In this document: positions 18,939 through 43,666 of the stretch, one piece after another | Numbering within the stretch: position 1 is the first letter of the stretch | Layout: each line of letters begins with the position of its first letter | Assembly (NCBI GenBank): GCA_050485485.1 | Contig: JBJHBM010000001.1 | Location: 41,037 to 105,036, forward strand | DNA from: Alphaproteobacteria bacterium | GTDB taxonomy: Bacteria > Pseudomonadota > Alphaproteobacteria > SMXQ01 | DNA: 64,000 nucleotides | Direction of reading: 5' to 3' | Made by a program: the position numbers and the translations under genes | The notes under the pieces: model-generated | The model's input: the letters and a program-made list of their open reading frames with translations, nothing else | The model's database searches: none | Told to the model about the DNA's origin: nothing

Positions 18939-19679
18939 TCAGGCCTTGGGCCCGGGAAGCTGCTCCATCAGGCTGCACAGCACGCCCTTCCAGGCGCGGT
19001 CCAGCGCCCAGCTCTCGCTCAGCCCTTCCATGACGAGATCGAGCTTGGCGGTCGTGTCGCAGTGGCGCTCGACGACCTTGTGCAGCAGGCTGGCATGCTC
19101 CACGTCCACCTCGGCATGCTCGAGGGCGTTGATCTGCTTGTGGAAGGGGATGCCGAGCTCCTTCTCCTGCTTCTTGCCCCAGCGGTAGGACATGCCGCCG
19201 TTGTCGAGCCATTCCGAGGAGTTGGAAACCTCGAGCGCCACGCAGGCGCCGAACGCCTTGAGCCACGCGCTGTCCTTGACCAGATGGATCCAGGCATAGA
19301 TGCAGGTGAGGGTCTCGTCGGCCGGCTTCTCCTTTTCGAAGTCGGTGCGGGTGAGGCCGATGGTGGCGGCCTGGCGCACCTGCAGCGAGTAGTGATCCTC
19401 GACGCCGCGCTTCTCGTTGCCCTGCAGCTCGTCCAGCTCGTGCTCCCAGATCAGCGCCTTTACGTCCATCGGCGCGAGCCCCTGGCAGAACGCCCAGCAG
19501 TCGCGGCGGTTCAGGTTCCAGAAGCCTTTCTGCAGGACATAGCGCTGCGCGCGTTCCTTGGTGAGGGGCAAGGCGAGGATACGCTTGTACTGCGGCGATT
19601 CGAACTGGGCGTTGGCGAGACGCCGGACCTCGGCATAAAACTCCTTGCGGAGCTTGTTGACGTCGATTGCGGTAGCCAT
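18939..19679 (-). CDS. Heme-oxygenase-like diiron protein (CADD/PqqC/TenA superfamily)
   Basis: Helical protein of ~246 aa with E-rich ELDELQG...EDH, ALEVS and HAEVDVEH (H-x3-D-x2-H) ligand pattern. Confidence 0.72.
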   Translation of the reverse strand: MATAIDVNKLRKEFYAEVRRLANAQFESPQYKRILALPLTKERAQRYVLQKGFWNLNRRDCWAFCQGLAPMDVKALIWEHELDELQGNEKRGVEDHYSLQVRQAATIGLTRTDFEKEKPADETLTCIYAWIHLVKDSAWLKAFGACVALEVSNSSEWLDNGGMSYRWGKKQEKELGIPFHKQINALEHAEVDVEHASLLHKVVERHCDTTAKLDLVMEGLSESWALDRAWKGVLCSLMEQLPGPKA

Positions 19680-19707
19680 GGCTTCCTCTCCTTGGAAAAC
19701 GGACTGG

Positions 19708-20724
19708 TCAGTTGACGGTCGTGCCTGCGGGTTCGACCCTGTGGAGCCCGAGGGCTTCCAGGGCCGGTGCATCGGTAACGTTGAACAGAAGCGCGTCCTC
19801 GTCGCGCGAGGCGTTGAAATGGGCGTGGCTGGCCCACGCCGGAATCACGAAAACGTCGCGCGCGCCCCACGGGAGCGTCGCGCCCTCGACTTCGGTGCGC
19901 CCCGCGCCGCGGATGACGAGATAGACCGCGCTCGAGGAATGGCGGTGCGGCGCGCCGGAGAATCCGGGCGGAAGCGAGGTCGCCGCCGCCCCGATCGTGC
20001 GCAGCACCGGGCGTCCCGTTCCGGGTTCGGAATAGGCGACGGTGCGGCCGTCGTGCGGCGAGACGCCGTCGTCGGGCACGCTCGCAAGGCGCGTCTCCAT
20101 GTCCGTCCAGGGGTAGTGCAGAATCGCCGGCGCGGGGGCGTTCTTCACGGGCTGGCGCGATTCGCCGAAGTTCTCGAACACCGTCTGGTTGAGCGCGGAG
20201 ACCAGCGGCCCGTCCAGAACGTCCATCCACAGGGCGCGTCCGTCGGACCCGTTGTGGTGGTCGTGCCAGTGCCAGTTGGGCGTGAGCACGAGGTCGTTGT
20301 CGCGCATCGGGCAGGCGATCCCGTCGACCACGGTGAACAGGTCGGGATGCCCTTCGATCACGAAGCGGAGCGCGGAGATGGTGTGGCGATGCGCCCAGGC
20401 GAGCTCGCCCGCCTTGATGAGCTGGATGCCGGTGTTGAGCGTGTGCGTGGTCGAGCGCGGCAGCCCGGGCGCGTTGAAGATGAGGGAGCGCCGCGCGGTG
20501 TAGCTTTCCGGGATCGCCTCGCAGGAGTCCTCGAGGAAGCGTTCGGTGTCCGACCATTTCCAGACGTGCGCGCTGCCGCGCGCGGCGGACTGCCATACCT
20601 CGCCCTGCCAGGCGCCCCCCTGGCCCTTGTCGCGGGCCTCGTCGGAGGTCCACTGGCCGCGCATATGCGCCGCCGCGAGGCGGGCGTTGAAGGCGTCGAG
20701 CGTGTCACCCTTGCCGTAGGACAT
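19708..20724 (-). CDS. Gentisate 1,2-dioxygenase-family bicupin (second copy)
   Basis: RRSLIFNAPGL, AWAHRHTISALRF and WHWHDH; C-terminal PHRHSS...WASHAH; paralog of 79..1134. Confidence 0.85.
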   Translation of the reverse strand: MSYGKGDTLDAFNARLAAAHMRGQWTSDEARDKGQGGAWQGEVWQSAARGSAHVWKWSDTERFLEDSCEAIPESYTARRSLIFNAPGLPRSTTHTLNTGIQLIKAGELAWAHRHTISALRFVIEGHPDLFTVVDGIACPMRDNDLVLTPNWHWHDHHNGSDGRALWMDVLDGPLVSALNQTVFENFGESRQPVKNAPAPAILHYPWTDMETRLASVPDDGVSPHDGRTVAYSEPGTGRPVLRTIGAAATSLPPGFSGAPHRHSSSAVYLVIRGAGRTEVEGATLPWGARDVFVIPAWASHAHFNASRDEDALLFNVTDAPALEALGLHRVEPAGTTVN

Positions 20725-21010
20725 TCGGATACGGGCGCTTGACGCGCCCAGGCCTCCCGTTTCTTGGCTGAAACCCGAGCATTTCGAGTATCGAAATGCC
20801 CCTTCTTTTCGGCCATTATTTTCTGAAAACGGTTGTCCCGCAAGGGGATGAGGGGATGCGAACGCCGAAAAAACTCGTTTGCCCGGTATTGCGTAATGGC
20901 ACGAAAAATTATCTGCATATGAGCGTTTTCGGCCGTTCGCGGGAGCCGTGCCGGACATGCTAAGCTGCCGCCGGAAACGGCACGAAGATGCGAGCAGAGA
21001 GGGAACCCCC

Positions 21011-22198
21011 ATGACCCACATTCCGCCCACCATCGCCGATATCCTCGCTTCCCGCACGGCCGCCGCCATGCCGTCGGCCGAGGTCAGCGAGTCGACCCGT
21101 GTGCGCGACCGCTTTCAGGCCATTGCCAACATGCAGCGCGTGTTCGCGATCCGGCCCGGCGAGCGCGTCGCCTTCCTGACCGACCCGCTGCTCGACCGCC
21201 GCGTGATCGATGCCATCGCGGGCATCGCGCGGGCCAACGGCGCCACCTTCCGCGAATTCATGTGGCACTCGACTCGCAACACGGAAATCCCGGCCGAGGC
21301 GCGTCCTCTGCTGGAGGACAGCGATTTCGTGGTCTCGTCCTGGTTCGCTTCGACCGGCTGCCCGTTCGCGAACAAGCTGCGCAAGGAGAAGGGGCAGCGC
21401 TGGATCAAGATCACCTTCTTCCGCAACCTCGACCTTCTGGACACGCCGCAAGCGCGCTTCCCGGTGGACCTGGTGGGGGAGATCATCCGCGCCACCGCGC
21501 GCAAGTATCCGCGCGGGGTGCCGTTCGACATGCGCTTCACCTGTCCGCGTGGCTCGGACCTCAATATCAAGTTCACGCCGCAGATGACCGAGAACCTGCT
21601 CGGCATCACGCGCTGGAAGGGCATCAACACGGGCGATGCGCCCGGCTGCTACGTCCACTATCTGCCGACCCACGGGCCCAATCTCTACGGCAACACCGCG
21701 CACAGGCGAGAGCCCAAGGCCCATGCGGAGATGGAGGGCATCATCTTCCCCCAATGGGCGGTGGGTTTCCCGCGCCCGTTCGAGGAGAAGATCGGCGTCG
21801 AGTTCAAGGACGACTTCATCGTCGCCATTCACGGCAAGGGACGCGAGGCGGACCACCTGCGCGAGTACCTGATCGGCGCGCGGCTCAATGAGCTCGGCTG
21901 CGGCTTCAACCCCAAGGCGCCGCGCTACCAGGTCTATCCGGCTGGGCCCAACTCGCCGGGCGGGCTCCATTTCGGCTGCAACGCGAAGAAGGAAAGCGCC
22001 TATCTGCGCCGCGCCATCCCGAACTGGGAGGAGCCGCACATCCACATGGACTTCGTGAGCTTCGACATGACCGTGACGGCAGGCAACGCGACGCTGATCG
22101 ACAACGGCTTCCTCGCGGCGTTGCGCGACGAGGACGTGGTCGCCGCCGCCGCGCGCTACGGCGACCCGGTGGAGCTGCTCGAATCGTTCGACCAGTAG
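21011..22198 (+). CDS. M29 aminopeptidase/NicX-fold metalloenzyme of unknown function
   Basis: IRPGERVAFLTD at the N-terminus; GSDL, NELGCGFNP, LHFG and HMD...LIDNG at the C-terminus. Confidence 0.6.
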   Translation: MTHIPPTIADILASRTAAAMPSAEVSESTRVRDRFQAIANMQRVFAIRPGERVAFLTDPLLDRRVIDAIAGIARANGATFREFMWHSTRNTEIPAEARPLLEDSDFVVSSWFASTGCPFANKLRKEKGQRWIKITFFRNLDLLDTPQARFPVDLVGEIIRATARKYPRGVPFDMRFTCPRGSDLNIKFTPQMTENLLGITRWKGINTGDAPGCYVHYLPTHGPNLYGNTAHRREPKAHAEMEGIIFPQWAVGFPRPFEEKIGVEFKDDFIVAIHGKGREADHLREYLIGARLNELGCGFNPKAPRYQVYPAGPNSPGGLHFGCNAKKESAYLRRAIPNWEEPHIHMDFVSFDMTVTAGNATLIDNGFLAALRDEDVVAAAARYGDPVELLESFDQ

Positions 22199-25545: not shown

Positions 25546-26250
25546 TCAATCGGCGGTCAGCCGGAACGTGACAGGCACCTCGACCGTGCCCGGAACCGGC
25601 CGTCCGCCGCGCTCCGCCGGCGCGAAACGCCACCGTTCGAGCGCCTCCAGCGCCGCCCGGTCGAGCCGTTGGTGCCCGCTCGAGCGCGCGAGCTCGGTCA
25701 TGGCGGCCCGTCCCGCCGCATCCACCGTGACCCGCACCACGACCCGGCCTTCCTCGCCGTTGCGCCGCGCGAGCCACGGGTAGGCCGGCGCCGGATTGGC
25801 GAGCCCGGCGAGCCCGTAGCGCGGCGGCCGGGCTTCGGGATCGCCGTCGCCATCGCCATCCGTCCCGGACGCTTGGTCCGGCTCCGACGGCGGCAGGGCG
25901 GCGATTTCCGCCGTTTCCGCGGTGTCCGGCACGTCGGCGGGCTTGGCCGGCATGGGGGGCGCTTCGGGCCGGCGCGGCGGCGCGGCGATCCGGGGCGGTG
26001 CGTTCGCGGCGGGCTCGGAGACGGGCTCGGGTTCGGAGGCGGGCTTGGACGTGATTTCGGGCGCGGTTTCGGGCATGGGTGTTGGCGCCGCCTCGACCAT
26101 CGCCTCGACCATCGTCTCGACCATCACCAGGGCCACCGCCATCATGGGCCGGTCGGGGGCGGGCGCGGTGCCGGCGGCGCCGATCCACAGCGCGGCGGCG
26201 AGCGCCGTCCCGTGCAGCGCGAGGGACAGCAGGGCGGCGCGCCCGGTCAC
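25546..26250 (-). CDS. tonB: Energy transducer TonB
   Basis: SLALHG TM anchor, Pro-rich linker, YPWLARRNGEEGRV...SSG..LDRAAL...WRFAPA C-domain. Confidence 0.88.
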   Translation of the reverse strand: MTGRAALLSLALHGTALAAALWIGAAGTAPAPDRPMMAVALVMVETMVEAMVEAAPTPMPETAPEITSKPASEPEPVSEPAANAPPRIAAPPRRPEAPPMPAKPADVPDTAETAEIAALPPSEPDQASGTDGDGDGDPEARPPRYGLAGLANPAPAYPWLARRNGEEGRVVVRVTVDAAGRAAMTELARSSGHQRLDRAALEALERWRFAPAERGGRPVPGTVEVPVTFRLTAD

Positions 26251-28959: not shown

Positions 28960-29000
28960 CCGGCTCCCGGCAAGCGCGCTTGCCGCGCGCCATCCCTCCG

Positions 29001-29045
29001 CAACCCTCTCCCCCCGACCGGGGGGAGAGGGCAGGGTGAGGGGGG
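29001..29045. repeat. Intergenic palindromic repeat, family 2 (CCCTCTCCC...GGGAGAGGG.AGGGTGAGGGG)
   Basis: Closely similar copy at 58457..58500. Confidence 0.7.
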
Positions 29046-29070
29046 TGGCTGGGCCCGGCGGCCGCATGCG

Positions 29071-31524: not shown

Positions 31525-32772
31525 CTATTCGGCCGGGGCCGGGGCGCTGCGCTTCCTGGCCATGGGTCCGCGCGGCAGCAGCACCGCCACCACGCACAGG
31601 GCGATGAAGAACATGGTGCTGTAGAACACGTATTCGGGCGGGAAGCGGTCCAGGATGAAGCCCAGCAGCACCGGGGCGAGGGCGCCACCCACGTTCTGGC
31701 CGGTGAAGATGAAGCCGAACACGCGGCCCGAAGCGCCTTCCGGCGTCACCTCGCGCACCATCATGTCGCGCGCCGGGCGCACCACGCCGTGGCAGAAGCC
31801 GGCGAAGCCGAAGAACACCACCAGCAGCGCGTAGTGGAGCGAGAAGAACGTGATGAGCACCACCGCGACGATCGAGAGCGCGTAGATGAGCGCCGCGAAA
31901 TGGTCCTGGCGCTTGACGTGGTCGGCGATCACGCCGCCCGCGAGCACGGCGAAGGAGCTCACGAGCATGTAGGCGCCGACGGCCGCGCCCGCGTCCACCG
32001 CGCTGGTGCCGTGAAGGGCGTTGAGCGCCGGGATCGAGAAGCTGTGGAGCCCGTTGCCGGCGAGCGAGGACATGGCGAAGAAGGTGAACAGCACCAGCAC
32101 CGGGCGCGACAGCAGGAGGTCGCGGTTCTCGGCGAAGCTGCCCCCCTTCTTGCCGTCTTCCCGGGGCTTGCGCTTGACCGGCGCGATGCGGTCGTCCTTG
32201 AGGCTCGACCACTGGGTGACGAGGGTGAGCAGGATCGCGAAGCCGAAGGCGGCGACGATCAGCAGCGCCACGCGCCAGTCCCACAGGGTGGACAGGAAGG
32301 TGATCACGACCGGGGCGGCGGCGAAGCCGAGATGGCCCGAGAAGGTGTGGACCGAGAACGCCCGTGCCATGCGCTTCTCGCTGACCGAGCCGTTGAGGAT
32401 GGCGTAGTCGGCGGGGTGAAACACCGCGTCGCCGATGCCGCCGATGACGACCAGCAGCACCAGCACCCAGTAGTTGGGGGCGAAGGCCATCGCCGCGAAA
32501 GCGGTGACCATCAGGAACATGCCGCCGCTCAGCATGAGCTTGGCGCCGTACCTGTCCACCAGGAAGCCGGCGGGGACCTGCGCCATGCCGGTGGCGATGT
32601 AGCGCAGGCTCAGCATCGCGCCCAGCGCCGTAAAGCTGATCCCCAGGTCCTGGTTCAGGAAGATGAACAGCGCCGGCAGCGCCAGCATGTAGAAGTGGCT
32701 GCAGAAATGGCCGGTGCACACCAGGCTCAGAATCTTGATGTCGTTGCCGACGCCGGCGCTCGCTGCGGACAT
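31525..32772 (-). CDS. MFS transporter, paralog 1 (Fsr-like)
   Basis: GHFCSHFY, AGFLVDRYG, VFHPADY and RPARDMM; about 12 TM helices. Confidence 0.88.
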   Translation of the reverse strand: MSAASAGVGNDIKILSLVCTGHFCSHFYMLALPALFIFLNQDLGISFTALGAMLSLRYIATGMAQVPAGFLVDRYGAKLMLSGGMFLMVTAFAAMAFAPNYWVLVLLVVIGGIGDAVFHPADYAILNGSVSEKRMARAFSVHTFSGHLGFAAAPVVITFLSTLWDWRVALLIVAAFGFAILLTLVTQWSSLKDDRIAPVKRKPREDGKKGGSFAENRDLLLSRPVLVLFTFFAMSSLAGNGLHSFSIPALNALHGTSAVDAGAAVGAYMLVSSFAVLAGGVIADHVKRQDHFAALIYALSIVAVVLITFFSLHYALLVVFFGFAGFCHGVVRPARDMMVREVTPEGASGRVFGFIFTGQNVGGALAPVLLGFILDRFPPEYVFYSTMFFIALCVVAVLLPRGPMARKRSAPAPAE

Positions 32773-32788
32773 GGGCTGTTCCTTGCTG

Positions 32789-34093
32789 CTACCGGGCGGC
32801 CTGCCGGGCCTGCTTGCGCGCGAGCGCCGCCGAGCCCATCACAGCAAACATGCAGATCACCATGAAGATGGCGGAGGTGTAGAACACCCAGGCGGTGACG
32901 CCTACGTCGATCATGAATCCGAACATGATCGGCGCGATGGTGCCGCCGATGGCCTGGCCGGAGAAGACGAAGCCGAACGCCTTGCCGATGGCGCCCTTGG
33001 GACTGGCGGCGCGGATCATCATGTCGCGGGCCGGGCGGATCATGCCCTGAACCCAGCCGGCGAGCGTGAACACGCCCACCAGCACCACGGTGTGGAGCGG
33101 GAACGCGCCCACGACCAGGGCGATGACGGCGGTGAGCAGCAGGGCGCCACCCGCGATCAGCTCGTGGCGGCTGTTCTTGTCGGCGACCACGCCGCCCGCC
33201 AGCACGCCGAAGGCGGACGCGAACAGGAAGCCGGTCAGCGCCGCGCCGGCGATGGCGACCGGAGTGTCGTGCAGCGTCACCAGGCCCGCCACCGACCAGT
33301 TGCGGAACGCGCCCGAGCCGAGCTGCTGCAGGGCGAAGAACAGGAACAGGAGCAGCATCGGCGGCGACAGGATGACCTGCTTGACCGCGACCCAGGTGCT
33401 CATCTCCGCGCCCGCCGCGGCCACCGCCTGGTCGGTCTTCTCCACCTCGGCGGCCTTGGGGGCGGCCTTGGGGGCGGCCTTGCTCTCGTCCTTGGCGGGC
33501 TTGGCAACGCCTTCCTCGATGCGGCTCCACTGGGTCGCCATGCCGATCAGGATGGCGACGCCGACGATGCAGGAGGCCAGCAGCCCGACCCGCCAGTTCC
33601 ACAGCGTTGCCGCGGTGAGGATCACCACCGGCGCCAGCGCGTCGCCGAGGTTGCCGGAGAAGGTGTGCGCGCTGAACGAGCGGCCGATGCGCGATTCGTG
33701 GATGCTGCCGTTGAGGATCGAGTAGTCGGCCGGGTGGAACACCGAGTTGCCGACGCCCGCGATCAGGATGAAGAAGGCGATCAGCCAGAACGAGGTCGTG
33801 ATCGAGACCAGGAAGAAGCACGCGATCAGGATGGCGAAGCCGGTCAGCAGCAGCATCTTGGCGCCGTACTTGTCCACCAGGATGCCGGCGGGAAGCTGCA
33901 TCATGCCCGACGCCATGTTCTTGGCGGCGAGCAGCAGGCCGAGCAGCGTGTAGCTGACTCCGAGGTCGTTGTGCAGGAACGGGAACAGGGGCGGCAGCAC
34001 GGTCGAGAAGTAGTGGCTCATGAAATGGCCGCCCGAGACCAGCCCGATGATCGTGGCGTCCCGCTTGACCGTGCCTGCCGTGGCGTCCGTCAT
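32789..34093 (-). CDS. MFS transporter, paralog 2
   Basis: GHFMSHYF, VFHPADY and RPARDMM; start taken at MTDATAG after GAGGA. Confidence 0.88.
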   Translation of the reverse strand: MTDATAGTVKRDATIIGLVSGGHFMSHYFSTVLPPLFPFLHNDLGVSYTLLGLLLAAKNMASGMMQLPAGILVDKYGAKMLLLTGFAILIACFFLVSITTSFWLIAFFILIAGVGNSVFHPADYSILNGSIHESRIGRSFSAHTFSGNLGDALAPVVILTAATLWNWRVGLLASCIVGVAILIGMATQWSRIEEGVAKPAKDESKAAPKAAPKAAEVEKTDQAVAAAGAEMSTWVAVKQVILSPPMLLLFLFFALQQLGSGAFRNWSVAGLVTLHDTPVAIAGAALTGFLFASAFGVLAGGVVADKNSRHELIAGGALLLTAVIALVVGAFPLHTVVLVGVFTLAGWVQGMIRPARDMMIRAASPKGAIGKAFGFVFSGQAIGGTIAPIMFGFMIDVGVTAWVFYTSAIFMVICMFAVMGSAALARKQARQAAR

Positions 34094-34208
34094 GTTCGTT
34101 TCCTCGTGTTGCCGCGCGTCCTCTGCGGGACGATTCGCGTTACTTCCTGGACCGCTCCGCGCGGGGTCCGGACCGGGACCCGGATAAGGACGTGCGCGGG
34201 CGCGGCGG

Positions 34209-35501
34209 TCATCCGGCGGGCTGTGCCTCCAGCCGCCGCTGGCGCCGCTCATAGTACGCCGAGCCCAGGACCGCGAGCGCGCACATGACCATGAAGAACG
34301 CCGAAGAGATAAAGACCCACATCGGGGCCCCGATGTCGATCAGGAACCCGAAGAACACCGGGGCGATGCCGCCGCCGATGGCCTCGCCCGAGAACACCAG
34401 GCCGACCACCTTGCCCATCGAGCCCTTGGGGCTGGCCGCGCGGATCATCATGTCGCGGGCCGGGCGGATGATGCCCTGGAACAGGCCGGCGACGGTGAAC
34501 ACGAACACCAGCAGGGCGTAGTGCAGGTCCACGTTGGCGACCAGCAGGCAGATGCCGGCGGTCAGGAACAGCGAGCCCGCGGCCAGCATGTCGTGGCGCT
34601 TGTTCCTGTCGGCGACCACGCCGCCCACCAGAACGCCGAAGGCGGAGGCGAACAGGAAGCCGGTGAGGGCGCCGCCTGCGGCGGCCACCGCCGTGCCGTG
34701 GAGCGTGACGAGGCCCGCGACCGAGAAGTTCTTGAAGGCGCCGCCGGCGAGCGAGGTCATGGCGAAGAACAGGAACAGGAACATGATCGCCGGGGAGCGC
34801 AGGATCTGCTGGATCATCTCCCAGGTGGTGGCCTCGCGCTCGGGCGCGGCCGCCGCGCCCACGGACATGGCCGCGACCTCGCTCTTCTTGCGCTTCTTCA
34901 TCTGCTTGGCGATGCCTTCGTGCATCTTGTTCCAGCGGACGAGAAGCCCCGCGATGATGACGAGGCCGACGATGACCGAGACCAGCACGCCGACGCGCCA
35001 GTTCCAGAAGGCGGTCATGGTCAGCAGCGCGACCGGCGCGACCGCCGAGCCGAGGTGGCCGGCGAAGGTGTGGACCGAGAACGACCGGCCGAGCCGGCTC
35101 TCGTGCACCGTGCCGTTGATGATCGAGTAATCGGCGGGATGGAACACCGCGTTGCCGATGCCCGCGATCAGGAACATCAGGGCGATCACCCAGAACGAGG
35201 TGCTGAGCGAGATCACGAAGTAGGCGCCGACGATGATGCCGAGGCCCATCATCAGGAGGATGCGCGCGCCGTACTTGTCCACCATGATGCCGATGGGAAG
35301 CTGGATCGCGCCGGCCGAGATGTGCTTGAGGGTAAGCAGGAGACCGAGCATCGTGTAACTGACGCCGAGGTCGTCGTGGAGGAACGGAAACAGGGGCGGC
35401 AGCATCATGGTGTAGTAGTGGCTCATGAAATGGCCACCCGACACCAAGCCTACGACTTCCACATCCTTGCGCAGCCTGCCCGCGGTTGCGACGTCCGCCA
35501 T
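34209..35501 (-). CDS. MFS transporter, paralog 3
   Basis: GHFMSHYY, VFHPADY and RPARDMM. Confidence 0.88.
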   Translation of the reverse strand: MADVATAGRLRKDVEVVGLVSGGHFMSHYYTMMLPPLFPFLHDDLGVSYTMLGLLLTLKHISAGAIQLPIGIMVDKYGARILLMMGLGIIVGAYFVISLSTSFWVIALMFLIAGIGNAVFHPADYSIINGTVHESRLGRSFSVHTFAGHLGSAVAPVALLTMTAFWNWRVGVLVSVIVGLVIIAGLLVRWNKMHEGIAKQMKKRKKSEVAAMSVGAAAAPEREATTWEMIQQILRSPAIMFLFLFFAMTSLAGGAFKNFSVAGLVTLHGTAVAAAGGALTGFLFASAFGVLVGGVVADRNKRHDMLAAGSLFLTAGICLLVANVDLHYALLVFVFTVAGLFQGIIRPARDMMIRAASPKGSMGKVVGLVFSGEAIGGGIAPVFFGFLIDIGAPMWVFISSAFFMVMCALAVLGSAYYERRQRRLEAQPAG

Positions 35502-35661: not shown

Positions 35662-36651
35662 TCAGATGCGGAATTTGCCGTGCACCACCGGAGGGAACAG
35701 GTCCTCGGGCTTGAGGCGCTTCTGGGCGATGCCCTGCTCGTGGGTCCATTTGAGGAAGGCCTCGAGGGTGGTGCGGTTGTCCTCGATGCCGTAGGGGAAG
35801 TAGTCGTCGCCGAGGAGCTTCATGCGCTGCTCGGCCTCGTAGGTGAGCCACGGCAGCGGCATGCGCGAGGCGGTGATCTCCAGCAGCCGCTCGATCGAGC
35901 GCTGGCGGGCCTTCTCGAAGGCGGTCATCAGGTTGGCGGCAACCCAGGAGTTCCCCTCGAGGATCGACTTCTTGATCGCGATCACGTGCATGATCGGGAA
36001 CACCTTGGTCTTCTTGTAGTAGTCGGCCTCGACCTCGCGGTAGTCCGGGAACAGCCGGCGCACGTCGGGGTGGCCGTCGAGGAAGCTGCGCGGCGCGTGG
36101 GCCGAGAAAGCAGCGTCGAGCTCGCCCGAGGCCAGCATCTCCGAAAGCGACTTGTCGGGCATCGGCGTGACCTTGACGCCCTTGGGCAGCTTCAGCTTGA
36201 CCTTCTCGATGCGTCCCGGCTGGTCGACGCCCGCCTGGCGCCAGTCGATCTCGGAGAGCTTGATGCCGACGTGGTCGGTGAGCCAGCCGCGGGTATAGAC
36301 CGAGGCCGTCTGCGCCCATTCCGGCGTGCCGACGCGCTTGCCCTTGAGGTCCTTCGCGGTCTTGATGCCGGCGTTCTTGTTGACGTAGATGTTCGAGAGC
36401 CGGAACACGCGCGAGGGGAACACCGGCAGGCCGATGATGTCGGGACGGTCGCCCGAAACCTGGGCCACGAACTTGGCGAACGACATCTCCGACAGGTCGA
36501 AGTCGCGGTGCAGCGCCATGCGGTAGAAGATCTCCTCGACCTCGTAGGTCATGAGGTTGAGGTCGATGCCCTCGATCGGCGCGTATTCGGTGCCGACGTC
36601 GCGGATGTGGTCGTACTCGGAACAGGCGAAGTTCAGCTTCAGCTTGGACAT
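35662..36651 (-). CDS. 4,5-dihydroxyphthalate decarboxylase-like protein (Pht5/OphC family)
   Basis: ACSEYD, EEIFYRM, FDLSEMS, PVFPSRVFR, FPIMH and PYGIEDNR motifs; no signal peptide. Confidence 0.8.
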   Translation of the reverse strand: MSKLKLNFACSEYDHIRDVGTEYAPIEGIDLNLMTYEVEEIFYRMALHRDFDLSEMSFAKFVAQVSGDRPDIIGLPVFPSRVFRLSNIYVNKNAGIKTAKDLKGKRVGTPEWAQTASVYTRGWLTDHVGIKLSEIDWRQAGVDQPGRIEKVKLKLPKGVKVTPMPDKSLSEMLASGELDAAFSAHAPRSFLDGHPDVRRLFPDYREVEADYYKKTKVFPIMHVIAIKKSILEGNSWVAANLMTAFEKARQRSIERLLEITASRMPLPWLTYEAEQRMKLLGDDYFPYGIEDNRTTLEAFLKWTHEQGIAQKRLKPEDLFPPVVHGKFRI

Positions 36652-36682: not shown

Positions 36683-38218
36683 TCAGGCCACCGCCGCGCC
36701 GGCGGCGGTCGGGGTGGAGAACAGGAGGGACTTGATGACCAGCGGCACGACGTTGGTGGGCTTGATCATCTCGCCGATGTCCACGAAGTCGAACTCCTTG
36801 AGCGCGACGCCGTCGACCGAGATGATGTCGGCCTTCACGCCGCACTCGCGGGTGAGGATGTTGCCGATGGTCTTGCCGATGTCGCCGTCGAGCATCAGCA
36901 CCAGGGCCTGGCCGCCCTTGATGGTGTTGGGGAGGCCGGCGCAGATGCCGTCCGCCAGGGCCTTGAGGCGCGCGTGCAGCGGGTCGCCGTGCCATTCGAA
37001 GGCGAGCGCCACGGGCTTCTCGCCCTCGTCGTAGTCGAAGCGCTTGAGGGCGGCCCGGATCTCCTCGTCGATCTTGACTGCATCGATCTCGCCCTTGAGC
37101 GAGACGTTGGGGCGCAGGACCGGGATGTTGCGGACCGGCAGGGCGCCTTCGTTGGAGATGTGGATGGTGTTGCCCGACACCTGGACCGAGAACTGTGAGG
37201 CGCCGACCACGGTCGCGCGGATGCCCTGGCCGGGGTCCATCACCTTGTAGGGAATGCGGTCGTCGCCAAGCGCCTCGGCCATGGCCTCGGCGAGATAGCG
37301 GCCGACGTCGTTGTGGTCCTTGGTCTCGCGCTTGTAGATGTACTCCGAGACGCCGCCCGAGAAGGTGATGAAGTCGGGCACCGGCTTCTTGGGCAGGGGC
37401 TCCGTCACCATCAGGTCCTTGGTGATACCCTCGGGGTCCTGCTGCATGACCGCCGGGATCAGGGCGGCGATCATGGTGCGGGCGATCTTGCGGATTTCGT
37501 CTTCGGAGAGCTTCTTGCCCATCTCGAGCTCGACGCCGGCCTTGCGGGCATGGACGAAGGCGGGGCCCTCGATGCGGTTGATGCGGCCGTCGTCATCGAA
37601 GGCGATCAGGCGCCCGCCGACCTCGATCGCGGCGCTCGCGAGCAGGCGCCCGCCGTGGCACAGGCCGAGCTTGGTGGTGCCGCCGCCGACGTCGATGTTG
37701 AGCACGTTCTTGTGCCCCTGGCGCGACAGCGCGATGGCGCCCGAGCCGTGGGCGGCCATGGCGCATTCGAGGTGGTGGCCGGCGGAGGCGCACACGAACT
37801 TGCCCGATTCGGCCGCGAACAGGTGGGTGATGGCCTCGGCGTTCTTGCGTTTGAGCGCCTCGCCGGTGAGGATCACCGCGCCCGAATCGACCTCGTCGCG
37901 CTTGATGCCGGCCTCCTTGTAGCCCGCCTCGATGAACTTCTGCAGGAAGCCCACGTCGATGGTGTTGTCCGGCAGGTAGGGGGTGAGCAGGATCGGCGAG
38001 CGCCACAGCACCTCGCGGTTGACCACGACGAAGCGCGAGCTGAGCGCGGTGGTGAGGCGCTGCATGTGGACCTTGGCGAACATCAGGTGAGAGGTCGAGG
38101 AGCCGACGTCCACGCCGATGGTGACGAGCTCGACGTTGTCCGCCGCCCAGATGGTTTCGGCGATCGCCTTCTCGTCCTCAGGGGTCATATGTCCGTGATC
38201 GAAGCCGAGTTCATGCAT
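36683..38218 (-). CDS. eutA: EutA-like ASKHA ATPase (ethanolamine ammonia-lyase reactivase homolog)
   Basis: GVDVGSSTSH, SPILLTPY, GAVILTGEA, NIDVGGGTTK, IRATVVGASQFSVQVSGNTI and VPLVIKSLLF; no eutB/eutC in the window. Confidence 0.8.
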   Translation of the reverse strand: MHELGFDHGHMTPEDEKAIAETIWAADNVELVTIGVDVGSSTSHLMFAKVHMQRLTTALSSRFVVVNREVLWRSPILLTPYLPDNTIDVGFLQKFIEAGYKEAGIKRDEVDSGAVILTGEALKRKNAEAITHLFAAESGKFVCASAGHHLECAMAAHGSGAIALSRQGHKNVLNIDVGGGTTKLGLCHGGRLLASAAIEVGGRLIAFDDDGRINRIEGPAFVHARKAGVELEMGKKLSEDEIRKIARTMIAALIPAVMQQDPEGITKDLMVTEPLPKKPVPDFITFSGGVSEYIYKRETKDHNDVGRYLAEAMAEALGDDRIPYKVMDPGQGIRATVVGASQFSVQVSGNTIHISNEGALPVRNIPVLRPNVSLKGEIDAVKIDEEIRAALKRFDYDEGEKPVALAFEWHGDPLHARLKALADGICAGLPNTIKGGQALVLMLDGDIGKTIGNILTRECGVKADIISVDGVALKEFDFVDIGEMIKPTNVVPLVIKSLLFSTPTAAGAAVA

Positions 38219-38277: not shown

Positions 38278-39405
38278 TCAGTCCGTATAGGGGCTTTCGT
38301 CGATATAGGCGCCCATGTCGGAGCGCACGTTGGTCTCCTTGAGCGCACCCAGCCACTTGCGGTGGATGCGCGGGTCCTGGTCGGCGTACTCGATCTGGCG
38401 GCCGCCCTTCTTGATATCGGTGTCGGCCTTGCCGGCCGCACCCTCGCGCCGGATGGTGGAGAACGGGTAGCGTCGGCTGCCCATGCCGACCGCGAGGTAG
38501 CGCGCGGGCTCGGGGGCGGTGTTGAAGTGCTGGTGGAACATCCACAGCGGCGGCGCGTACATGATGCCGTGGCGCCACGGCACCTCGACGAAATCCTGCT
38601 CGCCTTCGTACCACAGCAGGGTGTAGCCGGTGCCGGTCACCGCCCAGATGTGGATGCCGTCGCCGTGGCGGTGCCCCTTCTTGTAGCGCGCGGCCGGGAT
38701 CTCCGAGGTGTGTGCGTGCAGCGTGCCGTCCGCCAGGATGAAGGTGATGTTGGAGCCGCCGGCGCCGCGTTCGCTCCAGGTCACCAGCTCGAAGTTGGTG
38801 AGGTCGGGCACGAAGGTGGTTTCCCACATGTGGCGGCCGGGCTTGATCGGGGTGAAGTCGCCGTCGCCTTCGTAGTACTTCGGATCGCCCATGCGATCGC
38901 GGAAGCTGAAGTCGTTACCGAAGACGAACTCCTCGTTGTGGAACAGATTCATCACCAGCGGCGCGAAATGGGTGCAGGCGAGCCGCGCGCGCTCGGAGCC
39001 CGAGCCGTTGAGGATGCGGTAGCGCGCGTTCAGCGGCAGCGCGAACAGCGCGCGCGGCCCCCATTCGAACGTGTGCTTGCGCCCGTCCGGCAGCTCGATC
39101 ACGGTCGAGCCGTGGCCTTCCAGCACGTAGACGAAGCATTCGTACATGTGCCTGATCGCCTCGGTGCCGCGCCCGGTCGCGATATCGAGGAGATAGGCAG
39201 CACAGTTGTCGCCGCGCCCCCTGACGTGGAGGAACGCGCCGTCGCAGCCGAAGCGCGGCCACGGGCCGGTCTCGACCGCGAGCGCGTCTATGCCGAAGCC
39301 CTCGTGGACCGGCGGCCCCTCCGCCTTGACCCAATCGAGATAGGGGTCGAGCAGGAACCTCTTTTCGTGGTCCGTCTGCAGCAACTGCAGCTCTTCTTCA
39401 GCCAT
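38278..39405 (-). CDS. Uncharacterised bicupin, paralog 4 of 7
   Basis: DPYLDW, FEWGP, WETTFVPD, YKKGHRH, FHQHFN, QIEYADQDPRIH. Confidence 0.8.
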   Translation of the reverse strand: MAEEELQLLQTDHEKRFLLDPYLDWVKAEGPPVHEGFGIDALAVETGPWPRFGCDGAFLHVRGRGDNCAAYLLDIATGRGTEAIRHMYECFVYVLEGHGSTVIELPDGRKHTFEWGPRALFALPLNARYRILNGSGSERARLACTHFAPLVMNLFHNEEFVFGNDFSFRDRMGDPKYYEGDGDFTPIKPGRHMWETTFVPDLTNFELVTWSERGAGGSNITFILADGTLHAHTSEIPAARYKKGHRHGDGIHIWAVTGTGYTLLWYEGEQDFVEVPWRHGIMYAPPLWMFHQHFNTAPEPARYLAVGMGSRRYPFSTIRREGAAGKADTDIKKGGRQIEYADQDPRIHRKWLGALKETNVRSDMGAYIDESPYTD

Positions 39406-39435
39406 TCCCTCCTCCTCCCCGTGGAGCCGCGGCCT

Positions 39436-40557
39436 TCAGGCCGTCTTTTGTGTCCGAGACGCGTATTTCGATTCGTCGATGACGTCGCCCATCAGCGACT
39501 TGACCTGGTTCTTGGCGAGTTCCTCCAGGAAGATCGCGTGGATGCGCGGGTCCTGATCCTCGTACTCGACCTGGTTGCCGCCGTCCTTGATCGAGGTGTC
39601 CACGCCTTGGTCCCAGATCTGGCGCTTGACGGCGAACAGCGGATAGCGGGTCGAGCCCATCTGGACGGCGAGGTAGCGCGACGGCACGCTGCCCGAGTTG
39701 AAGTGCTGGTGGAACATCTGGTCGGGCGGCGCATACATGACGCCGTGGTGCCAGTCGATGCGCTTGAAGTCCGCGTCGTCCTCGTACCAGAACAGCGAAT
39801 ACCCCTGGCCGGTGATGCAATAGACGTTGGTGCCGGGCGTGTGCCGGTGGCCCTTCTTGTAGGTGCCGACCGGCATCTGGGAGGTGTGGCAGCCGATGGT
39901 GCCGTCGGCGAGGATCCAGCGCAGGTTGGACGAGCCGGTGCCGCGCGCATCCCACTGCTTGAGCTCGAAATTGGAGATGTCGGGAACGAAGTTCGTTTCC
40001 CACTGGTGACGTCCGGGCCGCACCGGCTTGAGCTCGCCTTCGCCCGAGAAGTAGCTGGTGTCGCCGAGGCGCTCCGTGAACGGGATCGGGTTGTCCCAGA
40101 TGAACCGCTCATTGCGGAACAGGTTCATGATGAAGCGGAGGTCGTTGTTGCAGGCGAGGCGCGCCGGCTCCGAGCCCGATCCGTTAAAGTGCTGGTAGGG
40201 AAGGTTGAGGGGAATCTCGAACAGGGAGTTGGGGCCCCATTCGAAGGTGTGGGTGCGGCCGTCCGGCAGTTCGATCTTGGTCGAGCCGTGGCCAGACAGC
40301 ACGTAGACCACTTCCTCGTAGACATGGCGCAGGCGGCTCGACTTGCCGCCGGGCGGAATCTCGAACAGGAGGGTGGAAAGATAGTCGTCGCCGCCCACCA
40401 GCTCGCAGATTGTGCCGCGCATCCCGAAGAAGTCCCACGGGGCGACCTCGGCCTGCAGCATGTCGATCCCGAAATCGCGCACCGTCGGGACCGGCTGGCG
40501 CGCGCACCAGTCGAGGTAGGTGTCCTGCAGATAGAAACTGCCCGTCGTTTCCGACAT
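39436..40557 (-). CDS. Uncharacterised bicupin, paralog 5 of 7
   Basis: DTYLDW, FEWGP, WETNFVPD, YKKGHRH, FHQHFN, QVEYEDQDPRIH. Confidence 0.8.
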   Translation of the reverse strand: MSETTGSFYLQDTYLDWCARQPVPTVRDFGIDMLQAEVAPWDFFGMRGTICELVGGDDYLSTLLFEIPPGGKSSRLRHVYEEVVYVLSGHGSTKIELPDGRTHTFEWGPNSLFEIPLNLPYQHFNGSGSEPARLACNNDLRFIMNLFRNERFIWDNPIPFTERLGDTSYFSGEGELKPVRPGRHQWETNFVPDISNFELKQWDARGTGSSNLRWILADGTIGCHTSQMPVGTYKKGHRHTPGTNVYCITGQGYSLFWYEDDADFKRIDWHHGVMYAPPDQMFHQHFNSGSVPSRYLAVQMGSTRYPLFAVKRQIWDQGVDTSIKDGGNQVEYEDQDPRIHAIFLEELAKNQVKSLMGDVIDESKYASRTQKTA

Positions 40558-40666: not shown

Positions 40667-41794
40667 TCAGGCGGTCTTCTTCGGGGCGAACTTGCTTTCG
40701 TCGAAGATGTCGCCCATCTGCGACTTGACGCCGTGCTTCGCGAGCTCGTTAAGGAAAATCTCGTGAATGCGCGGGTCCTGGTTTTCGTATTCGATCTGGT
40801 TGCCGCCGTCCTCGACGCTGGTATCCACGCCGCCGCCGAACAGCTTGCGCTTGCTGTCCACGAACGGATAGCGCATCGAGCCGAGCGCGACCGCGAGGTA
40901 GCGCGCGGGGTTGGGGCCGGTGTTGAAATGCTGGTGGAAGATTCCGTCGGTGGGCACGAACACGACGCCATGCTCCCAGTCGATGCGGCGGTAGTCCTGG
41001 TCCTTCTCGTACCAGAACAGGGTGTAGCCGCTGCCGTTGACGGCATAGACGTAGAAGTCGGCGCCGTGGCGGTGGCCCTTCTTGTAGGAGCCGACCGGCA
41101 TTTCCGACGAGTGCGCGTGCATGGTGCCGTCGGCCAGGATGAACTTCATGTTGCCCGAACCCTTGCCGCGCGCCTCCCAGGCCTTGAGCTCGAACGCCGA
41201 GATGTCGGGGACGAAGTTGGTCTCCCACATGTTGCGGCCCGGCTTGATCGGGATGAATTCGCCTTCGCCGGCGAAGTAATTGTGGCCGCCCTCGCGCTCG
41301 GGGAAGCTGAAGTCGTTGTCGAAGATGAACTTCTCGTTATGGAACAGGTTCATCATCAGCGGCAGGTAGTTGACCGACGACAGCCGCGCGCGCTCCGAGC
41401 CGGAGCCGTTGAAATGCTGGTAGCGGCAGTTGAGCGGCAGGGCGAACAGGCTCTTGGGGCCCCATTCGAAGGTATGCTTGTGGCCGTCCGAGGTCTCGAT
41501 CACGGTCGAGCCGTGGCCGTCCATGACGTAGATGGTCTCCTCGAACACGTGCTTCTGGGGCTTCGACTTCCCGCCCGGCGCGAGGTCGATCACGAACAGG
41601 GAGGTGAAGTCGCCGCGCCCGTCGAGGTGCACCAGCGCGCCATCGGTCTCGAACATGGCCCAGGGCTTGGTTTCCACGTCGAACAGGTTGATCCCGAGCC
41701 CCCCCGCGATCGGCACGTTCTGCGCTGCCGCCCAGTCCCCGTAGGGATCGAGCAGAAACTTCTTCTCCTTGATGGTCTGCATGATCTCGGCCAT
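40667..41794 (-). CDS. Uncharacterised bicupin, paralog 6 of 7
   Basis: DPYGDW, FEWGP, WETNFVPD, YKKGHRH, FHQHFN, QIEYENQDPRIH. Confidence 0.8.
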   Translation of the reverse strand: MAEIMQTIKEKKFLLDPYGDWAAAQNVPIAGGLGINLFDVETKPWAMFETDGALVHLDGRGDFTSLFVIDLAPGGKSKPQKHVFEETIYVMDGHGSTVIETSDGHKHTFEWGPKSLFALPLNCRYQHFNGSGSERARLSSVNYLPLMMNLFHNEKFIFDNDFSFPEREGGHNYFAGEGEFIPIKPGRNMWETNFVPDISAFELKAWEARGKGSGNMKFILADGTMHAHSSEMPVGSYKKGHRHGADFYVYAVNGSGYTLFWYEKDQDYRRIDWEHGVVFVPTDGIFHQHFNTGPNPARYLAVALGSMRYPFVDSKRKLFGGGVDTSVEDGGNQIEYENQDPRIHEIFLNELAKHGVKSQMGDIFDESKFAPKKTA

Positions 41795-41899: not shown

Positions 41900-41919
41900 T
41901 AACGTCCAAGGTACTGAAA

Positions 41920-42693
41920 TCAGGCGGCTTTCCGGGACTTCGCGGTGCCGGCCCCGTCGAGCTCCTTCTGGAGCACGTCGCCGGCGTCGCCGATACCGTT
42001 CAGATAGTTCTCCCAGATCGCCAAGTTCTGGTCCGCGACGTCGAGCAGGCGCTCTTCCATGCGCAATTCCTCGGCGTGCTTGGCGAGGTTCTTCCAGCCG
42101 AGGTCGGAATGGATCTCGTCCGCTTCCTCGTGGAGCTTGAAGAACCCGAGTTCGCCGTCCGAAAGGCCGAAGATTTCCTTCCAGCGGGCGCGCTCCAGGC
42201 CGAACCAGCCGCTCTCCTTGACGAGACCCGAGCCGTAGCCGCGGATGTTCGGGCGCTCCAGGATGACGTTGGCGAGCAGGCCTTCGAGCCAGTGGCAGTG
42301 CGACATCACGCCGGCCCAGGCGTTCCAGGACAGTTGGGTGGTCTTGAGCGGGCGCGCGGCGCGGATCTGCTCGCGCGACATGCCAATGGTGACGCCCAGG
42401 TTCTCCAGGATCTGCCAGTGGGGCAGGCCGCCGCCGAACTCGTCGTCGGCGATCAGCTCCTCGGAGGCAGCGCCGATGATGCTGAGGCGGGTGTCCCAGT
42501 CGGGGGTGAGGGTGGCGACCCGCAGCTTCAGCACCGAGTTGCGCTGGCGGGTGTTGAGCCGGTGCTGCATCACGAAGGTCTTGGCGCGGCCTTCGTTGTA
42601 GGGCTCGTTGAAGTAGCGGAGGTTGTCGCAGAACGCGTCAAGCTTCTCGTCGAGGGCCTTGATGAAGCCGGTGGCGTTGGGGTCGCGAGGCAT
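41920..42693 (-). CDS. Heme-oxygenase-like diiron protein (CADD/PqqC-like)
   Basis: EEL..DDEFGGGLPHW, LER and HEEADEIH (H-x3-D-x2-H). Confidence 0.72.
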   Translation of the reverse strand: MPRDPNATGFIKALDEKLDAFCDNLRYFNEPYNEGRAKTFVMQHRLNTRQRNSVLKLRVATLTPDWDTRLSIIGAASEELIADDEFGGGLPHWQILENLGVTIGMSREQIRAARPLKTTQLSWNAWAGVMSHCHWLEGLLANVILERPNIRGYGSGLVKESGWFGLERARWKEIFGLSDGELGFFKLHEEADEIHSDLGWKNLAKHAEELRMEERLLDVADQNLAIWENYLNGIGDAGDVLQKELDGAGTAKSRKAA

Positions 42694-42889
42694 GAACTGG
42701 TCTCCTGATGTCACAATTTTAGAAGCGTCTTCAGCGCGGTCCGCTTCGGGACTGGGCGGCCTAGGGACCGGAATGCCCGGTTTTCCGCCCGTCCGGCGAG
42801 TTTGTTGAAAACGCAAATATTAGATACCAAAGCCTCCCCCCTAATTGAAATACTATATGGCAATACTTCCTATATGAATTTTATATATC

Positions 42890-43666
42890 TCAGGCGCGCC
42901 GGGCGCGAGGCTTATGCCGGCCGCGCCGTGCCGTCCGCACAAGCGCGTCGCCCGCGTCGCCGATGCCGTTGAGATAGAGCTCCCAAATGCGCAGGTTCTG
43001 GTCGGCCACCTCCAGCAGGCGATCCTCCATGCGCAGCTCGCGCGCGAATTTGGCGAGATTCCGCCAACCGAGGTCGGAGTGCTTCTCGTCGGCCTCGTTG
43101 TGGATCTTGAAGAACTTGAGCGCCTCGTCGGGGAGATGCGGGAACAGCTTCCTCCAGCGCACCCGCTCGTAGCCGAGCCAGCCGTACTTGCGGATGTTGC
43201 CCGATCCGTAGCCCGGGATGTTGGTGCGCTCGGACACCACGTTGGCGAGCAGCCCCTCGAGCCAGTGGCAGTTGGCCATCACGCCCATCCACGCGTTCCA
43301 GGCGAGCTGGGTGGTGGGAAGCGGCTTCGCGGCACGGACATTCTTGCGCGACATGCCGATGGCGACGCCCAGGTTCTCCAGCATCAGCCAGTGGGGGAGG
43401 CCGCCTCCGAACTCGTCGTCGCGCACCAGCTCCTCGTAGCAGGCGCCGAGGATGCGAAGCCGCGTGCCCCAGTCCGGCGTGTTGGTCGCGACCTTGAGCT
43501 TCAGCACCGAGTTGCGCTGGCGGGTGTTGAGGCGGTGCTGATAGACGAACATCCGCGCGCGCCCCTCGTTGTAGGGCTCGTGGAACAGCCGGGTGCGCTC
43601 GCAGAAATCGTCGAGCACCTTGTCGAGCTCGCGGATGAAACCGGTCGCCTTGGGGTCGCGGGGCAT
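42890..43666 (-). CDS. Heme-oxygenase-like diiron protein; tandem paralog of 41920..42693
   Basis: Same MPRDP.ATGFI start; HRLNTRQRNSVLKL, DDEFGGGLPHW and HNEADEKH. Confidence 0.72.
   Translation of the reverse strand: MPRDPKATGFIRELDKVLDDFCERTRLFHEPYNEGRARMFVYQHRLNTRQRNSVLKLKVATNTPDWGTRLRILGACYEELVRDDEFGGGLPHWLMLENLGVAIGMSRKNVRAAKPLPTTQLAWNAWMGVMANCHWLEGLLANVVSERTNIPGYGSGNIRKYGWLGYERVRWRKLFPHLPDEALKFFKIHNEADEKHSDLGWRNLAKFARELRMEDRLLEVADQNLRIWELYLNGIGDAGDALVRTARRGRHKPRARRA

Follow-up and report, generated by a model that had tools for sequence, protein, structure and literature searches.

Predicted heme-oxygenase-like dimetal proteins of two uncharacterised families lie in putative aromatic-acid catabolic operons of an uncultured alphaproteobacterium

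Three genes for predicted heme-oxygenase-like dimetal proteins (HDOs), here called HDO1, HDO2, and HDO3, lie on the minus strand of a 64,000-nucleotide stretch of contig JBJHBM010000001.1 (positions 41,037 to 105,036; assembly GCA_050485485.1), referred to below as the window. The source is an uncultured alphaproteobacterium with an assembly of 2.69 Mb that is 95% complete, and the GC content of the window ranges from 0.63 to 0.78. The initial annotation had reported three minus-strand open reading frames (ORFs), and the motifs that it had read in them were all found in the translations: HAEVDVEH in the ORF at 18939-19772, HEEADEIH in that at 41920-42816, and HNEADEKH in that at 42890-43666. 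The starts of HDO1 and HDO2 were moved inward from these first-listed ORFs on the basis of family alignments (alignment A2 in the case of HDO1), which places HDO1 at 18939..19679 (246 aa), HDO2 at 41920..42693 (257 aa), and HDO3 at 42890..43666 (258 aa). All three proteins exceed the Pfam cut-off of 28.9 bits for PF14518 (Haem_oxygenas_2, “iron-containing redox enzyme”), scoring 37.3, 33.0, and 33.9 bits, respectively, and a protein atlas search returned only clusters named “iron-containing redox enzyme.”

The three genes had been treated as being of one kind, but HDO1 and HDO3 are only 24% identical over 119 residues and therefore represent two families rather than one. We use the labels HDOa (HDO2 and HDO3) and HDOb (HDO1), coined in this analysis; the two family profiles align with an hhalign probability of 93.7%. 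HDO3 and HDO2 are the upstream and downstream members of a tandem pair and are 72% identical over 244 residues. The suggestion that the pair at 41.9-43.7 kb is a tandem duplication was borne out, as orthologous pairs are kept, in the same order, in four other genomes (L002, L004, L005, and L006). Copies there are 76-85% identical to their own counterpart in the window (82-85% for the HDO2 orthologues) and 63-72% identical to the other copy, indicating that the duplication is old and has been retained.

A fourth HDO gene, of family HDOb (G000:C1:40297-40995, which is L080:16289-17011; minus strand), ends about 40 bases to the left of the window start and scores 56.7 bits against PF14518 (E = 8.6e-75 with profile A2). 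It adjoins the gene for an IclR regulator and lies directly downstream of a bicupin gene at 79..1134 (minus strand) whose product resembles gentisate/5-aminosalicylate 1,2-dioxygenase (GDO-like; 250 bits against TIGR02272, below the cut-off) and with which it is paired. These four are the only PF14518 matches in the whole genome, and all lie inside about 44 kb of the 2.69-Mb assembly. Such clustering is far beyond chance: by our own arithmetic, random placement would give it a probability of about (44/2690)^3, or about 4e-6.

The HDO genes had also been taken to be isolated, whereas each is embedded in a conserved module with bicupin genes, in one case together with genes for an EutA-like ATPase and a decarboxylase homologue. 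In the module of the tandem pair (cassette 2), the order of transcription on a single strand is dehydrogenase, HDO3, HDO2, three bicupins, EutA-like ATPase, decarboxylase homologue, and three transporters, with gaps of 48, 196, 125, 109, 30, 59, 31, and 160 nucleotides. The first gene (43715..44743, minus strand), 48 nucleotides upstream of HDO3, encodes a zinc-type medium-chain dehydrogenase/reductase (MDR) with ADH_N and ADH_zinc_N domains that reaches no NCBIfam equivalog. Three Cupin_2 bicupins are encoded on the minus strand at 40667-41794, directly downstream of HDO2, and at 39436-40557 and 38278-39405. The EutA-like ATPase of the ASKHA type (36683..38218, minus strand) matches PF06277 over its full length (E = 2.6e-119) and begins with MHELGFDHGHM. 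The homologue of 4,5-dihydroxyphthalate decarboxylase (35662..36651, minus strand) has the binding-protein fold, no signal peptide, and a phmmer match to PDB entry 9jp7 over residues 1-326 (E = 2.3e-67). Downstream of it, three transporters of the major facilitator superfamily (MFS) are encoded at 31525..35501 (minus strand; MFS_1 E = 7e-59, 2.4e-40, and 2.8e-45). Divergent from this operon is the gene for PcaF, 3-oxoadipyl-CoA thiolase (44949..46151, plus strand), with 698.3 bits against a TIGR02430 cut-off of 597. Between 31 and 46 kb, a search for promoters and terminators found 0 promoter-like sites, and terminator-like sites were uninformative in high-GC DNA.

The module of HDO1 (cassette 1) is more compact, with the transcription order GDO-like gene, HDO1, and three bicupins on one strand and gaps of 28, 16, 27, and 7 nucleotides. 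The GDO-like bicupin gene (19708..20724, minus strand) lies 28 nucleotides upstream of HDO1. Judged by its sequence, its product belongs to the wider gentisate dioxygenase family and is not an equivalog, as it scores 211 bits against TIGR02272 (cut-off, 442) and 211.5 bits against NF049978, also below the cut-off. The three Cupin_2 bicupins are encoded on the minus strand at 17807-18922, directly downstream of HDO1, and at 16634-17779 and 15496-16626. Convergent on the cassette, after TctA and TctC-like genes, lies a gene (14415..15407, plus strand) for a predicted cytoplasmic NMT1/THI5-like protein of the binding-protein fold (PF09084 E = 8.5e-14) that has no signal peptide at its likely start. 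Homologues of this gene adjoin the bicupin triple in five related loci (L092, L093, L111, L113, and L114), and its product may be an enzyme rather than part of a transporter. The two NMT1/THI5-like neighbors were considered as a possible thiamine context and rejected, although no search aimed at thiamine genes was made, since one of them best matches 4,5-dihydroxyphthalate decarboxylase and both are without a signal peptide; they are best taken for proteins of the 4,5-dihydroxyphthalate-decarboxylase type. On the other side of cassette 1, a divergent ORF of 416 aa without a family match (20948-22198, plus strand) has counterparts of 76-83% identity in L092 and L097.

AlphaFold2 models of HDO3 and HDO1 were built from the family alignments, with HDO2 represented by the 72%-identical HDO3. 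The predicted local distance difference test score (pLDDT) was 91.2 for HDO3 and 91.8 for HDO1, with predicted template modeling scores (pTM) of 0.88 and 0.89, respectively. Foldseek matches of the HDO3 model comprised 4lqx (SSO2700), CtCADD (template modeling [TM] score of 0.80-0.83 on the target), 3dde, PqqC, BesC, HrmI, PolF, and UndA, and the top matches of HDO1 were BesC, 3dde, CtCADD, TenA, PqqC, 4lqx, and FlcD. With VIA-align, HDO3 aligned best with 4lqx (Z = 24.5), followed by CtCADD (1rcw; Z = 23.1, root mean square deviation of 2.0 A over 208/213 residues), PqqC (Z = 21.7), HrmI, UndA, FlcD, PolF, and BesC (Z = 18-19), and TenA homologues (Z of about 17-19). SznF was neither among the 50 VIA-align entries listed nor among the Foldseek matches listed, which carries no weight as evidence. 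The CADD/PqqC-like heme-oxygenase fold proposed for these proteins thus agrees with the PF14518 scores, the models, and the structural matches, and the outcome that the initial annotation had named as refuting, a different fold, did not arise.

The ligand spacing of CADD (an E...H segment, a central Glu, and H-x3-D-x2-H), also pointed out by the initial annotation, is conserved in both families at the sequence level. In HDOa, all 28 sequences agree at E79, H92, E146, H189, D193, and H196, and E85 occurs in 26; both E79 and E85 of HDO3 are candidates for the Glu paired with the first His. In HDOb, E81, E84, H96, E150, H188, and H195 are invariant in 32 sequences, and D192 occurs in 30. An alignment across four HDO clades retains E84, H96, H188, D192, and H195 in 10/10 sequences and E150 in 9/10, and a profile alignment to the p-aminobenzoate (pABA) synthase 9pj4 places its segments DEEHGE-KNH, FE, and HQKADIYH on the HDO ligand positions. 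On the strength of alignments and models, HDO1 to HDO3 are predicted to be members of the HDO superfamily with the seven-helix fold and a 3-His/3-carboxylate set, and the six conserved residues would form a putative dimetal site.

The same structural matches can be read differently, with the HDOs being metal-free proteins of the PqqC/TenA kind that oxidize a hydroxylated aromatic acid without a cofactor or, as hydrolases (e.g., in C-N cleavage), act on the ring-fission product of the neighboring cupin dioxygenase. The Z scores of HDO3 against PqqC and TenA homologues would agree with this, as would the many invariant basic or His residues of HDOa (R36, H44, R45, R49, R51, K56, R147, R168, and R170); the polycarboxylate pocket of PqqC is rich in such Arg, Lys, and His residues. 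HDO1 also lies downstream of the GDO-like gene, not ahead of it, and the modules hold no conserved reductase. However, the full 3-His/3-carboxylate set is retained in both families and in four clades. Moreover, scores against PF03070 (TENA/THI-4/PQQC) are only 13.7, 11.7, and 14.7 bits for HDO1, HDO2, and HDO3, all below the 22-bit cut-off, and the PqqC model TIGR02111 gave no match at E <= 1 for any of the three. We consider metal-free HDOs unlikely.

Conservation of gene neighborhoods was examined separately for the two families. A scan with one genome per species found 314 HDOa relatives in about 185,000 species genomes, and the best 80 of these provided 79 loci, nearly all from metagenome-assembled genomes, in which partners were counted by tblastn with the window proteins. 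De novo context clustering typed 63 of the 79 loci, the HDO gene being uncalled in the other 16. A bicupin gene directly follows HDOa in 20 loci, each with one to five bicupins. An EutA-like gene is present in 15 of these 20, and in four of the remaining five the contig ends less than 1 kb from the first bicupin; the decarboxylase homologue is present in 11, and MFS genes recur in the same position in related loci. Directly upstream of HDOa lies the MDR dehydrogenase (13/20) or a LysR regulator (7/20). The thiolase gene is likewise found on the opposite strand upstream of the MDR dehydrogenase in 9/20 loci, directly abutting it in most, though not all.

HDOa genes of the other 59 loci encode proteins of about 56-61% identity to HDO3 and are mostly labeled Burkholderiales; their surroundings fall into several kinds. 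In 11 Burkholderiales-type loci (L027, L034, L037, L053, L055, L057, L058, L060, L067, L071, and L072), a gene for an unnamed 473-aa protein with merely faint LVIVD and choice-of-anchor-B matches precedes HDOa, which is followed by TctC and often an MDR dehydrogenase. Nine further loci, plus two recognized by Pfam (L059 and L065), have the order CoxD-like, malonyl-CoA decarboxylase, CoxE, CoxG, and HDOa. In eight, HDOa is followed by genes for an MFS transporter, a two-domain vicinal oxygen chelate (VOC) dioxygenase, an alpha/beta hydrolase, and a thiamine pyrophosphate (TPP) enzyme, a context that looks like a meta-cleavage operon. In three Binataceae loci, finally, decarboxylase homologues flank HDOa on both sides, and the one scanned with Pfam (L026) also holds PdxA-like, Rieske VanA-like, and amidohydrolase_2 genes. 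The VOC-type and Binataceae settings thus also point to aromatic catabolism.

HDOa itself changes little between these settings, with 56-61% identity between Alphaproteobacteria and loci labeled Burkholderiales or Binataceae. A HMMER search of 1.84 billion representatives gave 249 matches, of which a single full-length representative exceeded 200 bits at 50% clustering; HDOa is therefore one tight family in which identity exceeds 50% throughout. The best 150 of the 249 matches included no long HDO-cupin fusions, the longest protein having 311 aa.

Among 401 sampled Alphaproteobacteria, HDOb was found only in the window's own family, in three genomes and at nine places, with a GDO-like gene directly upstream in seven of the nine and UbiD genes and bicupins often nearby. 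The patchy distribution of both families is as expected for an accessory trait. A metagenome scan added 199 HDOb relatives, of which 80 loci were retained. Where at least 1 kb of upstream sequence was available (n = 55), the gene directly upstream was GDO-like in 18 loci and EutA-like in 8; where at least 1 kb was available downstream (n = 48), a bicupin followed directly in 23; and where both flanks were available (n = 35), at least one partner was present in 21. Another HDO clade, the third, shares 42-47% identity with HDO1 and is found as a tandem pair in loci with the order decarboxylase-like, EutA-like, HDO, HDO, and bicupin (L156-L173). Here the partner set of cassette 2 accompanies another HDO family in another gene order, which speaks for a functional link rather than for synteny by descent.

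Directly downstream of the MFS trio of cassette 2 lies an iron-uptake set on the minus strand (25546-31080), consisting of a TonB-dependent receptor, a periplasmic binding protein, an FecCD permease, an ABC ATPase, and TonB. It falls partly in the highest-GC stretch of the window (0.777, 26-28 kb), where long overlapping ORFs make the gene limits uncertain. These genes (25.5-31 kb) were considered as module members and rejected, since their adjacency is not conserved in related loci; there, other genes follow the MFS genes, such as one for a CoxM-like flavoprotein in another locus scanned with Pfam as a representative.

The position of the iron-uptake set would suit a biosynthetic role of the cassettes, in which HDO and cupin make a metallophore or other small molecule by SznF-type N-N bond formation, the MFS transporters export it, and the TonB-dependent receptor and FecCD system take it up again. 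In the parts of the 2026 HDO review available to us (PMC13108848), validated members are described solely in biosynthesis, and SznF is an HDO combined with a cupin. In contrast, searches with Pfam and NCBIfam found no gene for a nonribosomal peptide synthetase (NRPS), a polyketide synthase (PKS), an NRPS-independent siderophore (NIS) synthetase, or an amino-acid-activating enzyme in either cassette, and the lack of conserved adjacency of the iron-uptake genes also speaks against this role. The recurrent partners are instead decarboxylases, ring-cleavage-type dioxygenases, and TctC and MFS importers of catabolic islands. Biosynthetic cassettes are therefore very unlikely in our estimation.

The six cassette bicupins have 370-380 aa and are 48-60% identical in all pairs, and no one-to-one orthology between those of the two cassettes was seen when looked for. 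Nine bicupin paralogues lie inside 71 kb of the genome, which also has a distant copy; the nine include further members at 62635-63831 of the window and at L080:9793-10977 with its neighbor. At 60975-63831 (minus strand), a seventh bicupin is followed by genes for a UbiD-family decarboxylase and two family-III CoA-transferases; an HDO gene is absent from the vicinity, so that bicupins also work without an adjacent HDO. The N-terminal cupin of these proteins is without the usual His ligands, and the C-terminal cupin retains H245, H247, H291, and H293; the nearest solved relative, the C-terminal cupin of gentisate dioxygenase, matches at only E = 4.8e-5. At least 4,931 relatives were found at E <= 0.001 among 8,000 scored candidates, and their names are only generic cupin labels.

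The EutA-like ATPase is the genome's single copy. It falls below all EutA equivalogs of NCBIfam (340 bits for the best, against a cut-off of 598), and EutB was not found in the 95%-complete genome. A His-rich N-terminus recurs in 15/15 related loci, as MH[ED]L.FDHGH in 13 and MHDVEFSHIH in 2, and the His enrichment is stronger in L172 and L160, where the N-terminus reads HEHQGHGNHGHDHEG. No paper tying the HDO families, or the module of HDO, bicupin, and EutA-like genes, to a function was found among open-access papers and bioRxiv.

The island around the two cassettes is rich in genes for aromatic catabolism, as the initial annotation had implied. PcaH, PcaG, and PcaB (2597-5371), GalD, 4-oxalomesaconate tautomerase (8568-9689), BoxC and BoxB of the aerobic benzoyl-CoA epoxide pathway (53605-56726, plus strand; 943.7 and 855 bits), and PcaF all score above curated cut-offs, BoxC and BoxB well above them. 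The island further holds three UbiD decarboxylases, two Rieske oxygenases, TctA/TctC transporters, and an IclR regulator. Beyond the box genes lie a PanD aspartate decarboxylase gene (56809-57192) and, after it, three consecutive small ORFs (57303-58535, plus strand; 129, 100, and 171 aa) with coding-like GC content at third codon positions and no Pfam or NCBIfam match.

Absence of a pqq or folate context, another claim of the initial annotation, also held. Neither pqqE nor a match to the PqqC model was found in the genome, although the controls of the latter search also gave none, and pabB (370.7 bits against a cut-off of 328.4) and folP are present on other contigs. This bears on the possibility that the HDOs are self-sacrificial pABA synthases like CtCADD and NePabS, or makers of another cofactor. 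CtCADD is among the closest folds, NePabS is the closest characterized sequence, and HDOa, which is very strongly conserved, occurs by itself in many Burkholderiales loci. On the other hand, scores against the CADD model TIGR04305 are 15.7, 22.3, and 28.3 bits for HDO1, HDO2, and HDO3 against a cut-off of 200 bits, and the genome has four copies, all within catabolic operons. The sacrificial residues of CADD/pABA synthase are Tyr27 and Lys152, according to the portion of the HDO review accessible to us (PMC13108848); the HDOa column aligned to the sacrificial Lys of NePabS contains R, K, S, or H, a weak point of the comparison in that it is a loop position. A pABA synthase role is unlikely, as the genome encodes pabB and folP and scores against the CADD model fall far short of the cut-off, and cofactor synthesis as a whole appears to us highly improbable.

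A gene for a full-length member of the PnbB family (4-hydroxylaminobenzoate lyase; 51877-52362, plus strand; E = 1.9e-46) raises another possibility, namely, that HDOa is a catabolic arylamine N-oxygenase that converts 4-aminobenzoate or a related arylamine to the hydroxylamine, from which the PnbB-family lyase would form protocatechuate for PcaHG and PcaF. N-oxygenation feeding this lyase is a chemically precedented alternative that draws on loose synteny. SznF and HrmI perform N-oxygenation, and RohS is an HDO acting on an aromatic amine, as stated in the parts of two papers open to us (PMC13108848 and PMC13133933, respectively). The closest characterized sequence relative of HDOa is the pABA synthase NePabS (9pj4; profile E = 2.6e-8), five related loci keep a homologue of the PnbB-family gene in synteny with the HDOa operon, and PcaF is divergent from that operon. 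However, the PnbB-family gene is about 8 kb away on the opposite strand with unrelated genes between, the synteny is seen only in close relatives, and the decarboxylase homologue, bicupins, and EutA-like gene are left without a role. We regard arylamine N-oxygenation as distinctly unlikely.

We consider it somewhat probable that HDOs of two uncharacterized families were recruited into operons by which imported aromatic carboxylic acids are broken down aerobically. The gene context gives good support to a catabolic oxygenase role, which would be new chemistry. We propose the following. (i) Each HDO would bind two metal ions, most likely iron, and activate O2. (ii) It would oxygenate an anionic aromatic substrate by hydroxylation, oxidative decarboxylation, or N-oxygenation, the first two of which would fit a decarboxylase-rich, polycarboxylate-transporting island. 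(iii) It would thereby make or process the substrate of the neighboring cupin dioxygenases, i.e., the GDO-like protein beside HDO1 and the bicupins beside all three HDOs. (iv) In the HDO2/HDO3 operon, the decarboxylase homologue would take off a ring carboxyl group. (v) Carbon would then pass to protocatechuate and the island-encoded beta-ketoadipate pathway. (vi) A labile metal center of the HDO, the bicupin, or both would probably depend on the EutA-like ATPase and its His-rich N-terminus for loading or restoration. The diiron cluster of many HDOs is described as labile in section 4 of the HDO review, which was available to us in part (PMC13108848).

Several observations weigh against recruitment of the HDOs into aromatic-acid breakdown. 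First, no bicupin comes immediately after HDOa in 59/79 loci (in L073, one lies about 6 kb upstream), many HDOa relatives lie in contexts with no clear aromatic pathway, about 11 loci of the cox type among them show no evident one, and 14/35 metagenome HDOb loci with both flanks show no partner; related loci are, in addition, partly kin, and partner counts are therefore not independent events. Second, the unusual conservation of HDOa would also fit a housekeeping role. Third, PqqC and TenA have the same fold without a metal. Fourth, the modules share no conserved gene for a reductase or ferredoxin, which leaves the electron source for a monooxygenase unexplained, the MDR dehydrogenase being only a candidate. 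Fifth, no RNA sequencing run containing the stretch was found, most of which is covered by a single DNA run.

A bolder version of the recruitment of HDOs into catabolism would join the partners more closely: the HDO (often a hetero-pair of paralogues), bicupin, and EutA-like ATPase would form one multicomponent catabolic oxygenase with the logic of SznF split over several proteins, and the ATPase would be a His-rich, ATP-driven chaperone that reloads the diiron center after turnover. We regard this version as doubtful. If true, it would be the first case of an HDO in catabolism and of one served by a cofactor reactivase of its own, and the EutA fold would gain a second job outside B12 enzymes.

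If two conserved HDO families do serve in operons for aromatic-acid catabolism, the superfamily would come to include degradation, and its members in uncultured bacteria of soil and freshwater would be candidates for new ring chemistry that depends on O2. The recurrent His-rich EutA-like ATPase bears on how labile dimetal cofactors of HDOs are assembled and maintained in cells, and the partner bicupins constitute a very large family without functional names.

Among known systems, PqqC (1otw), a metal-free oxidase, shares the fold, but the window HDOs, unlike PqqC, keep the metal ligand set. Joint Genome Institute (JGI) annotation calls most relatives “PQQ biosynthesis protein C.” Given the conserved ligand set, the lack of a match to the PqqC model, and the failure to find pqqE in the 95%-complete genome, this public name is wrong for these proteins, and a PqqC role is excluded in practice.

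The self-sacrificial pABA synthases CtCADD (CT610; 1rcw and 8va9) and NePabS (9pj4) have the same seven-helix fold and 3-His/3-carboxylate pattern and are of similar size. HDO3 is, however, only 14% identical to CtCADD, and its model has a loop of about 11 residues between the invariant E79 and H92; the window genome already has pabB, and the HDO genes stand in catabolic operons in two to four copies. The best sequence match of both families is SSO2700 of Sulfolobus solfataricus (4lqx; TENA/THI-4 domain), with E = 3.4e-9 for HDOa and 8.5e-5 for HDOb. SSO2700 differs in being a structural-genomics entry, in being about 60 residues longer N-terminally, and in having E at the first His of H-x3-D-x2-H.

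The C-C-cleaving HDOs UndA and BesC also share the fold, BesC being the top Foldseek match of HDO1 (TM of 0.69/0.75) and UndA having a Z score of 18.8 to HDO3, and a carboxylate substrate is plausible for them and for the window HDOs. Identity is only 13-15%, and the window context points to aromatic acids, whereas the substrates of UndA and BesC are fatty or amino acids in biosynthesis (PMC13108848, as far as its text was available to us).

Of the partner proteins, the EutA-like ATPase is comparable to EutA, the reactivating factor of ethanolamine ammonia-lyase, through its full-length match to PF06277. Unlike EutA, it is below the equivalog cut-offs, carries a His-rich N-terminus, and is associated with bicupins and HDOs in a genome in which EutB was not found.

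The combination of an HDO with a cupin has its closest parallel in SznF of streptozotocin N-nitrosourea synthesis, in which an HDO domain is fused to a cupin domain (PMC13108848, in the part accessible to us). In the window, too, HDO stands beside cupin: HDO genes have bicupin genes as immediate neighbors in the two cassettes and in many of the related loci. Unlike in SznF, HDO and cupin are here the products of separate genes, the cupins are bicupins of 370 aa, and the context is catabolic.

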